Shown here in pieces: positions 50,901-53,900 of a DNA stretch of 64,000 nt. This DNA is from Escherichia coli O127:H6 str. E2348/69 (lineage in GTDB: Bacteria > Pseudomonadota > Gammaproteobacteria > Enterobacterales > Enterobacteriaceae): the NCBI RefSeq assembly GCF_000026545.1, contig NC_011601.1. One strand, written 5' to 3'. The position numbers were made by a program. Position 1 is the stretch's first letter. Every line of letters starts with the position of its first letter.

Positions 50901-53900
50901 CAACGCTGGCAGCTTGATCTGGCTGTACTGGCAAAATCCCGGGAAGAAGAGACGACCCGGCCAACCCTGAAAGAACTGGCAGCGAAGCTGTCCGGAGGAG
51001 TGAATGGTTACAGTCGCTGAACTGCAGGCGCTGCGTCAGGCGCGCCTTGATTTATTAACCGGTAAACGGGTGGTGTCTGTCCAGAAAGATGGTCGCAGAA
51101 TTGAATATACGGCGGCTTCTCTGGATGAGCTTAACCGGGCGATCAATGATGCGGAGTCGGTACTGGGGACAACCCGGCGTCGCCGTCGTCCGCTGGGAGT
51201 GAGGTTATGAAACGAACGCCTGTCCTGATTGATGTGAACGGCGTTCCGCTTCGTGAGAGTCTCAGCTACAACGGGGGCGGTGCAGGATTTGGCGGGCAAA
51301 TGGCGGAGTGGTTGCCACCGGCGCAGAGTGCCGATGCGGCCCTGCTGCCCGCGTTGCGTCTGGGGAATGCCCGGGCAGATGATCTGGTGCGCAATAACGG
51401 AATAGCGGCCAATGCGGTGGCACTGCATAAGGATCACATTGTCGGGCATATGTTTCTTATCAGCTACCGTCCGAACTGGCGCTGGCTGGGGATGCGGGAG
51501 ACCGCAGCAAAAAGCTTTGTCGATGAGGTGGAGGCGGCCTGGTCGGAATACGCCGAAGGGATGTCTGGCGAGATCGACGTGGAAGGAAAACGCACGTTCA
51601 CGGAATTTATCCGTGAAGGTGTGGGCGTTCATGCGTTTAACGGCGAAATCTTTGTGCAGCCGGTCTGGGATACGGAAACCACGCAGTTATTCCGTACGCG
51701 TTTTAAAGCCGTGAGTCCGAAACGGGTGGACACGCCAGGACACGGTATGGGGAACCGTTTTCTGCGGGCCGGGGTGGAGGTCGATCGATATGGCCGTGCC
51801 GTTGCGTACCATATCTGTGAGGATGATTTTCCGTTCTCCGGGAGTGGACGATGGGAACGGATCCCGCGTGAACTTCCCACCGGGCGTCCGGCCATGCTGC
51901 ATATTTTCGAGCCGGTGGAGGACGGGCAGATCCGTGGGGCCAACCAGTTTTACAGCGTCATGGAACGGCTGAAGATGCTCGATTCCCTGCAGGCAACACA
52001 GCTTCAGTCGGCCATTGTGAAAGCCATGTATGCAGCGACGATTGAAAGTGACCTTGATACCGAAAAGGCCTTTGAATATATCGCCGGTGCGCCGCAGGGG
52101 CAGAAGGATAATCCGCTTATTAATATTCTGGAGAAGTTCTCCAGCTGGTATGACACGAATAACGTGACGCTGGGTGGTGTCAAAATTCCGCACCTTTTCC
52201 CCGGGGATGATCTGAAACTACAGACTGCGCAGGATTCAGACAATGGATTTTCGGCGCTTGAACAGGCGCTGCTGCGGTATATCGCCGCCGGTCTTGGCGT
52301 TTCCTACGAACAGTTGTCCCGTGATTACTCGAAGGTCAGTTATTCAAGTGCCAGGGCCTCTGCCAATGAGTCGTGGCGCTATTTTATGGGGCGGCGAAAA
52401 TTTATTGCGGCCCGGCTGGCCACGCAGATGTTTTCCTGCTGGCTGGAAGAGGCACTTCTTCGGGGGATTATCCGTCCGCCACGGGCGCGTTTTGATTTTT
52501 ATCAGGCGCGATCAGCCTGGTCACGGGCAGAGTGGATTGGTGCCGGAAGAATGGCCATTGACGGGCTCAAGGAGGTTCAGGAATCGGTGATGCGCATTGA
52601 GGCCGGACTGAGCACGTATGAGAAAGAGCTGGCGCTGATGGGCGAGGATTATCAGGACATTTTCCGCCAGCAGGTCAGGGAATCTGCAGAGCGGCAAAAA
52701 GCCGGACTCTCACGTCCGGTGTGGATAGCGCAGGCGTATCAGCAGCAGATAGCGGAGAGTCGCAGGCCGGAAGAGGAGACAACACCCCGTGAGACGTAAT
52801 CTTTCACACATTATTGCCGCAGCATTCAATGAACCGCTGCTTCTGGAGCCCGCCTATGCGCGGGTTTTCTTTTGCGCGCTCGGGCGCGAGATGGGGGCAG
52901 CAAGTCTTTCGGTACCACAGCAGCAGGTACAGCTTGATGCTCCCGGAATGCTGGCTGAAACGGACGAGTACATGGCCGGAGGTAAACGACCGGCCCGTGA
53001 GCACAACCGGGCGATGTGCTGCTGTGCTGTTTTGGTTCATCGGTGCCGAATCATGCCGCCATTTACTGTGGTGACGGCGAGCTGCTGCACCATATTCCTG
53101 AACAACTGAGCAAACGAGAGAGGTATACCGACAAATGGCAGCGACGCACACACTCCCTCTGGCGTCACCGGGCATGGCACGCATCTGCCTTTACGGGGAT
53201 TTGCAACGATTTGGCCGCCGCATCGACCTTCGTGTGAAAACGGGGGCTGAAGCCATCCGCGCACTGTCCACACAGGTCCCGGCGTTTCGTCAGAAACTGA
53301 ATGACGGCTGGTATCAGGTGCGCATTGCCGGGCGTGATGCAGGTGAAACCGAATTATCTGCCCGTCTTAATGAGCCGCTGGCAAATGGTGCCGTGATCCA
53401 CATCGTACCGCGCCTGGCGGGGGCTAAAAGTGGCGGCGTATTTCAGGCTGTGCTGGGGGCGGCGCTGATTGCGGTGGCATGGTGGAACCCTGCAGGCTGG
53501 CTGGGTGCTGCGGCTTTATCGGGCATGTATGCGGCAGGAGCCAGTATGATCCTGGGCGGTGTGGCCCAGATGCTGGCACCGAAAGCCCGGACGCCCACAG
53601 CGACCAGCACGGATAACGGTAAGCAGAACACCTATTTCTCGTCACTGGATAACATGGTTGCTCAGGGCAATGTTTTGCCTGTTCTGTACGGTGAAATGCG
53701 CGTGGGGTCGCGGGTGGTTTCTCAGGAGATCAGCACGGCAGACGAAGGTGACGGTGGGCAGGTTGTGGTGATTGGTCGCTGATGCAAAATGTTTTATGTG
53801 AAACCGCCTCCGGGCGGTTTTGTCGTTTATGGAGCGTGAGGAATGGGTAAAGGCAGCAGTAAGGGGCATACCCCGCGCGAAGCGAAGGACAACCTGAAAT

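Follow-up and report, generated by a model that had tools for sequence, protein, structure and literature searches.

The C-to-K junction in the potB/potC lambdoid prophage of Escherichia coli E2348/69, most probably the product of a single deletion of about 10.2 kb

In the late region of a lambdoid prophage of E. coli E2348/69, the portal gene B is followed by the beginning of a gene C and then, in another frame, by the end of a gene K. This raises the question of whether the head and tail-shaft genes that lie between C and K in lambda were deleted, as the original prediction proposed, or whether the order is native to a different morphogenesis module, or the missing genes have moved elsewhere in the element. 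The window analysed here is a stretch of 64,000 nucleotides of the E2348/69 chromosome (contig NC_011601.1). Its positions 51200-54200 are 100% identical to the E2348/69 record NZ_CP059840.2, on the minus strand, and a window position equals 2,914,718 minus the record position.

The element is a lambdoid prophage of about 40.8 kb between potC and potB (RefSeq annotation), a size that follows from the 14-bp direct repeat found at both ends:
19971-19984, no strand: attL core CACCTTCTTATTCA, 14 bp, on the potC side; repeated directly at 60758-60771, with potC and int/xis on either side
60758-60771, no strand: attR core, the same 14-bp repeat CACCTTCTTATTCA, within the 3' end of potB (potB annotation)
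The genes potC and potB are direct neighbours in the potABCD operon. From the attL end the order is int, xis, exonuclease, dicB/ydf genes, immunity, replication, an inserted island, hokD, rusA and a methyltransferase, continuing with two tRNAs, iraM, a nanS-type esterase, lysis genes, cos, Nu1, A, W and B; 3' of B come the C/K deletion junction and then I, J, lom, stf and tfa. Integrase and excisionase genes at one end, att repeats, a cosN site and lambda gene order are all those of a lambdoid prophage, and tblastn places the lambda homologues Nu1, A, W, B, I, J, lom, stf and tfa in lambda order. Its position between PP4 and the ompW prophage, together with the lack of any annotated effector, makes it probable that this prophage is the PP5 of the original genome paper; full-text searches on the prophage name, in texts that did not include that paper, returned nothing specific.

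Two intact relatives serve as the main references for the late region. L003 is a prophage in strain Z1323HEC0067, 99.1% identical over Nu1-A-W-B-C', and L013 is the prophage of strain FDAARGOS_1059, which occupies the same potB attachment site and is collinear over the late region. The late genes retained in E2348/69 are as follows:
48392-48403, + strand: cosN, GGGCGGCGACCT, intact; exact and the sole match in the window, 170 bp upstream of Nu1
48572-49120, + strand: Nu1, terminase small subunit, intact, 182 aa; 100% identical to L003 and 52% to lambda, no internal stops
49092-51020, + strand: A, terminase large subunit, intact, 642 aa; 99.5% identical to L003 and 67% to lambda
51004-51210, + strand: W, head-tail joining protein, intact, 68 aa; 100% identical to L003
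51207-52799, + strand: B, portal protein, intact, 530 aa; Pfam Phage_portal_2 (E = 1.9e-100), 99.2% identical to L003
53135-53782, + strand: I, tail assembly protein, intact, 215 aa; 79% identical to lambda I over all 223 residues, Pfam Lambda_tail_I
53843-57256, + strand: J, tail-tip/host-specificity protein, intact, 1137 aa; 88% identical to lambda and 96% to L003
57326-57925, + strand: Lom-family outer-membrane protein, intact, 199 aa (annotation, tblastn, translation)
57990-59574, + strand: side tail fibre, a stf-like ORF of 437 aa and an 89-aa C-terminal-domain ORF, both intact (annotation, tblastn, translation)
59926-60507, + strand: tfa, tail fibre assembly; 91% identical to lambda Tfa residues 5-191; the native start is gone, and an IS2 fragment (59648-59960) lies alongside
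The cosN match by itself is not rare, appearing at least once in 26 of 100 shuffles, and it is the place just upstream of Nu1 that identifies the site. Translation gives full-length ORFs without internal stops for Nu1, A, W, B, I, J, lom and stf, the same eight genes that had been read as intact from the sequence. The start codon of I lies inside the retained part of K, the same nesting as in lambda.

Between B and I the window carries the remnants of two genes, the join between them, and an ORF that runs across it:
52789-52999, + strand: pseudogene formed by the 5' end of the prohead protease/scaffold gene C (codons 1-70 and one further base); 69/70 identical to L003
between 52999 and 53000, no strand: deletion junction, no inserted bases, 0-nt microhomology; from three-way alignments with L003 and L013 as left parents and L004, a third prophage, as right parent
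52789-53109, + strand: chimeric 106-aa ORF, C codons 1-70 followed by 36 codons of out-of-frame K (translation)
53000-53237, + strand: pseudogene formed by the 3' end of the tail-tip gene K (the final 78 of its 247 codons and the stop); 96-97% identical to the lambda and L003 K C-termini

The C-like ORF begins with a GTG at 52789 and overlaps the end of B (B stop at 52799), the arrangement also found in lambda. It is identical at 69/70 residues to the intact 501-aa S49 prohead protease of L003 and ends in ...GGKRPAR at 52998, just as the original prediction described a gpC-like frame recognisable for 70 codons. A gpC-type protease/scaffold has an S49 domain with its catalytic residues and a nested Nu3 C-terminus; the C remnant does not have these and is a truncated pseudogene, which PGAP labels 'S49 family peptidase, incomplete, missing C-terminus'. 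Both tblastn and PGAP extend the C match to 53076. This extension was rejected as a chance 'AVL...LVHR' likeness in the out-of-frame reading of K, since DNA identity to the C parent ends at 52999. The fusion of C to K exists at the DNA level only, the C frame reading K out of frame, and no Pfam domain, S49 included, was found in the 106-aa chimeric ORF. This ORF stops at 53109, 26 nt upstream of the start codon of I, which leaves the surviving late genes in a single compact run.

The K remnant reads in the frame with position mod 3 = 0, against 1 for the C frame. From 53001 it encodes AQPGDVLLCCFGSS...STFV, 78 codons, with the stop at 53235-53237. It is 96% identical to lambda gpK residues 122-199, which bears out the earlier reading of about 78 C-terminal gpK residues from this position, and 97% identical to residues 170-247 of the 247-aa L003 K. 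Only positions 51-105 of the 105 in the Pfam NLPC_P60 profile are matched. The HSHP...SEAD motif and the DCY cysteine of intact K proteins fall inside the deleted part, and the remnant does not show the features of a gpK, namely an MPN/JAB JAMM-type motif and a full NlpC/P60 (C40 peptidase) domain with its conserved Cys. It is thus a protein end without both the N-terminal metalloprotease-type motif and the front half of NlpC/P60, including the conserved Cys. PGAP labels it 'NlpC/P60, missing N-terminus'. Its first bases are closer to the K allele of L004 (98.3%) than to K of L013 or L003.

The position of the join was expected within 52996-53001, and the alignments place it at 52999/53000. 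When compared by blastn with intact relatives, the left alignment runs to 52999 and the right alignment starts at 53000 or 53001, with flanking alignments at E = 0, so that chance is excluded. Base-by-base alignment to L003, L013 and L004 found no repeat, microhomology or IS element at 52999/53000, in agreement with the absence of a long repeat noticed in the sequence. In a megablast search of 5,426 complete E. coli genomes and 50,697 phage records, every match splits at the junction, and the junction itself is present in 1 of the 5,426 genomes, which is E2348/69 itself.

The join connects base 211 of C to the last 235 coding bases of K. The deleted segment comprises the remainder of C/Nu3, all of D, E, FI, FII, Z, U, V, G, T, H, M and L, and K up to codon 169; set against L003 and L013, the prophage has lost 13 whole genes and portions of two others. 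Between the two breakpoints L003 has about 10,226 bp and the same-site L013 about 10,200 bp. The lambda equivalent is 4641-14637, or about 10.0 kb (from a residue count on translations, checked against lambda coordinates), which matches the earlier estimate of roughly 10 kb. Relocation of these genes within the element was examined by tblastn across all 64 kb of the window, with 25 proteins of lambda and 23 of L003, and was rejected: Nu3, E, FI, FII, Z, U, V, G, T, H, M and L have no match anywhere in it. A candidate D homologue at 25458-25664, in the early region, was a single 35-bit tblastn match and was taken as a chance off-target. The expectation that the block from the rest of C to most of K is missing, and that the window holds no head or tail-shaft genes elsewhere, therefore stands: the block is present in L003 and L013, and tblastn finds none of it here.

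A gene order native to a different module was also rejected. L013 and L003 are phage 21/lambda-type prophages with the late gene order seen here, at 95-99.6% identity, but they keep the C-to-K stretch of about 10.2 kb, and in both the full C-Nu3-D-E-FI-FII-Z-U-V-G-T-H-M-L-K block lies between the breakpoints. The order in the window is thus a deletion derivative. The alignment to lambda and to intact relatives that the original prediction had called for breaks at 52999/53000, and no relative has this order as its native one; the junction is confined to one complete genome and the same-site L013 is intact. L013 is the closest same-site relative, 95.8-99.6% identical to the window, and by RefSeq accession its RusA, methyltransferase, IraM, holin, lysis, TonB-like and W proteins are identical to those of the window. 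Beside potB, L013 has T3SS effector genes (espW, DUF1076/NleG-like) that are absent from the E2348/69 prophage, in which no effector genes are annotated.

Taken with the potC and potB flanks, the 14-bp repeat makes both arms of the junction part of one inserted element. One seamless join links positions 10.2 kb apart in this element, and the chromosomal flanks are undisturbed; the event involved no rearrangement of the chromosome, since the element lies between the neighbours potC and potB and has matching att repeats at its ends. Very probably, then, the junction reflects a single homology-independent (illegitimate) deletion of about 10.2 kb inside the lambdoid prophage between potB and potC in an ancestor of E2348/69. 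On this account an ancestral EPEC prophage at potB/potC would have lost about 10.2 kb in one illegitimate event, presumably independent of RecA. The event probably proceeded through a double-strand break whose ends were resected and then joined without homology, or else through illegitimate recombination of the topoisomerase type. Homology-free joining of resected ends does occur in E. coli, and topoisomerase-mediated illegitimate recombination likewise leaves homology-free junctions. A multi-step history may lie behind the junction, since no undeleted exact ancestor was found among the genomes and phage records compared, and so may an earlier exchange with another prophage, since the start of the K remnant best matches the L004 allele.

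Outside the complete genomes, the exact 106-aa chimeric protein is encoded on eight contigs that come from other assemblies, namely two NCBI genomes, a number of ENA assemblies and a single Logan run, and a one-cluster variant of it is on a ninth contig. The junction 30-mer AACGACCGGCCCGTGAGCACAACCGGGCGA has no match in JGI metagenome contigs or IMG/VR. Among the junction-bearing contigs, one is identical to the window over 12.3 kb and one has 2 SNPs; the remaining ones differ by 0.5-1.3%, in clustered patches that start 70 to 600 bp from the junction, and in the assemblies with diverged flanks the flanking ORFs are full length. Variation among these contigs outside the clusters is sparse. The pattern suggests that the deletion allele may have been inherited in more than one strain, with its flanks reshuffled by recombination among lambdoid prophages, and chimeric metagenome assembly could be another source of the clustered differences.

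It is unlikely that the junction arose instead by illegitimate or short-patch recombination between two lambdoid prophages, one with 21/lambda-type head genes and the other with the K-I-J genes of the L004 type. The best matches do differ by arm, the left being 99.1-99.9% identical to 21/lambda-type prophages and the right 98.3% to L004, which has a different terminase-capsid-portal module. At least two further lambdoid prophages reside in E2348/69, and the J-lom-stf segment of the potB/potC prophage is 98.3% identical to its counterpart in PP4. Mosaicism of K-I-J alleles is normal in lambdoid phages, however, and no special event is needed here to account for it. Both arms are collinear with a single same-site relative, L013, along the whole late region, and the intact potC/potB neighbours and att repeat argue for an internal event. 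A co-resident donor of the K remnant was looked for in two prophages of the strain and rejected: the ompW prophage, PPompW, gives no blastn match to it and PP4 is only 93% identical, so that neither is a close donor.

A different reading accepts the deletion and sees the deleted prophage as a retained functional element, with its late genes under selection either for helper-dependent cos-packaging or as a reservoir of host-range and accessory genes. The host-range genes named in it are J and stf, and the accessory ones are lom, Septu defence, the nanS-type esterase and iraM. This is very unlikely, although cosN, Nu1, A, W, B, I, J, lom and stf are all intact, and J is intact here while PP4 (torS/torT, nleB2/nleC/nleD) has both J and H frameshifted. 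Two out-of-frame pseudogene stubs fit an accident rather than an evolved architecture. The finding of the junction with diverged flanks and full-length flanking ORFs in several assemblies would suit a retained element, but such flanks may stem from recombination or from chimeric metagenome assemblies; among complete genomes the junction does not extend beyond E2348/69, and the post-deletion mutations are too few for a test of selection. Packaging or transfer through prophage-prophage interactions is described for defective prophages of O157 Sakai (PMC2669165), yet in E2348/69 further disruptive IS insertions speak against a maintained function.

These insertions include ISEc13 and IS200C; compared with L013, the two together place 2.3 kb of extra DNA between the start of the late operon and the lysis genes. 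There is an IS481-family element close to hokD, and the replication/nin region is interrupted by a degenerate integrase and the inserted island (annotation). The C-to-K deletion is therefore one of several lesions, and the deletion, the IS insertions and the island together mark the prophage as a decaying cryptic element. By gene content it is a defective (cryptic) prophage, with virion genes lost relative to L003 and L013 in addition to the IS insertions.

That the junction is an assembly artefact, a collapse between the similar tail genes of the several lambdoid prophages in E2348/69, is scarcely conceivable and is ruled out by its presence in independent assemblies, the identical junction being found in the closed long-read-era RefSeq chromosome, two further NCBI assemblies, and ENA and Logan assemblies, and the joined sequences have no similarity at the join on which an assembly could collapse.

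Following the single deletion, the prophage would be without the means to make proheads, tail tubes and a tape measure, and would form no virions alone. The deletion is routine lambdoid prophage decay, which is standard in attaching-effacing E. coli. Both the C and K remnants are already annotated as truncated pseudogenes in RefSeq (PGAP), and beyond correct annotation the lesion matters little. There is a slim chance that the remnant is not inert and acts as a donor of the J/stf cassette to co-residents such as PP4, or is packaged with helper heads and tails; if so, its persistence in several diverged sequence backgrounds would reflect selection. Knowledge of the lesion is useful for induction, transduction or prophage-curing work in E2348/69, a widely used EPEC reference, and the junction is a clean, base-resolved case of homology-independent deletion in prophage decay.

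The K-12 cryptic lambdoid prophages DLP12, Rac and Qin have undergone large internal deletions and still carry isolated late genes (nohA/nohD, stfR/tfaR, lomR), nohA and nohD being homologues of the terminase small subunit. Compared with these, the 40.8-kb element of E2348/69 is far less decayed, and its int, xis, immunity region, lysis genes, terminase, portal and J are all full length.

In O157 Sakai nearly all lambdoid prophages have deletions, frameshifts or IS insertions in morphogenesis genes, usually with an intact terminase, and some of the defective ones are packaged or transferred via prophage-prophage interactions (PMC2669165). Sp3, Sp4, Sp6, Sp9, Sp14, Sp15 and others are, like the E2348/69 prophage, lambda-like elements of an attaching-effacing pathotype that share their host with co-residents carrying similar, partly complementary genes (PMC2669165). 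The difference is that in E2348/69 one event takes the whole head and tail-shaft block. No packaged DNA was detected for the ompW prophage PPompW of E2348/69 (PMC8112680). The wider relevance of the deletion lies in the complementary defects among the lambdoid prophages of this strain, which is the setting of the prophage-prophage complementation described for Sakai (PMC2669165).

The element also resembles phage satellites, which likewise are without some or all virion structural genes and need a helper for particles. Satellites such as P4, PICIs and cf-PICIs are about 10-15 kb in size and have an evolved architecture with dedicated helper-hijacking genes (for helper interference or capsid redirection), free of remnants of structural genes of their own. 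The E2348/69 element differs from them in being a phage genome of 40.8 kb whose C and K stubs are freshly truncated, and its terminase, portal and J are 95-100% identical to those of intact prophages.

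The C pseudogene has been drawn out to 53076 by tblastn and PGAP because window positions 53000-53076, K sequence read in the C frame and out of frame for K, give 'AVLVHR', which resembles 'AVLPVTGTLVHR' of the true prohead protease gpC. This extension was rejected: the resemblance is fortuitous, and DNA homology to C stops at 52999.

The deletion junction is identical to that of E2348/69 in the contigs L007, L008, L010, L011, L012 and L014 from other assemblies (samples ERZ761550-56, ERZ1023040, SRR1577779 and GCA_000442085.2), and every flanking ORF in these contigs is still full length. 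Over the equivalents of window 49700-53540, their SNPs relative to E2348/69 are clustered in A, B, the K remnant and I. These patches arose either because prophages recombined with one another once the deletion was in place or because metagenome assembly produced chimeras.

The co-resident lambdoid prophages lie on the E2348/69 record at 3,074,000-3,119,200 (L016/L017) and 2,690,000-2,735,300 (L015). The tail module of PP4, the prophage at torS/torT, is lambda-like: Z, U, V, G, T, M, L, K and I are intact, but the tape-measure gene (H) and J are both frameshifted; J of the potB prophage is intact. The defects of the co-resident prophages are complementary. Exchange between PP4 and the potB prophage is suggested by sequence comparison, since their Lom proteins are identical (WP_001233161.1) and the segment from the J C-terminus through lom to stf has 98.3% identity. 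In the ompW prophage the morphogenesis module looks complete and is of a different type.

The potB prophage also carries the following IS-related features:

33372-34460, minus strand: IS481-family transposase gene, between the Septu pair and hokD
43265-44638: ISEc13 transposase, within a 2.26-kb insertion
44776-45234: IS200C tnpA, within the same insertion
59648-59960: IS2 fragment, inverted, abutting a lambda-like tail fibre assembly gene, tfa (region 59648-60507)

The IS481-family insertion is one more lesion of this prophage. In the alignment with L013, an intact prophage at the same site in strain FDAARGOS_1059, window positions 43076-45337 are 2.26 kb of extra sequence made up of ISEc13 and IS200C, flanked by a nanS-type esterase gene and the holin gene. 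The two L013 alignments on either side overlap by 8 bp, consistent with a target-site duplication. Identical ISEc13 transposase genes, with the same protein accession, also occur elsewhere in the E2348/69 genome, in the ompW prophage and near agp.

At the right end, the lambda-like tfa has lost its first ~4 codons and now starts with TTG. The right end of L013 has a full IS2 and the T3SS effector genes espW and two DUF1076/NleG-like genes, followed by potB. The full IS2, espW and the DUF1076/NleG-like genes are all absent from E2348/69, so the right end of its prophage has been remodelled.

The prophage interrupts the potABCD operon at the point where potB and potC meet; the 14-bp core repeat, at 19971-19984 and 60758-60771, leaves both reading frames complete. 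As a result, 40.8 kb of prophage lies between potC/potD and potA/potB, and this separation may change how the spermidine/putrescine transporter is expressed.

The prophage also contains both genes of a complete Septu pair, an anti-phage defence system, next to two other features:

29241-30083: DUF5677 protein
30189-30709: integrase remnant, frameshifted
31122-33117, plus strand (Septu pair): PtuA, 457 aa (PADLOC E = 1.9e-165)
31122-33117, plus strand (Septu pair): PtuB (HNH), 211 aa (PADLOC E = 1.1e-83)

The DUF5677 protein had no PADLOC match. Together, the Septu pair, the integrase remnant and the DUF5677 gene look like a small island inserted in the replication/nin region.
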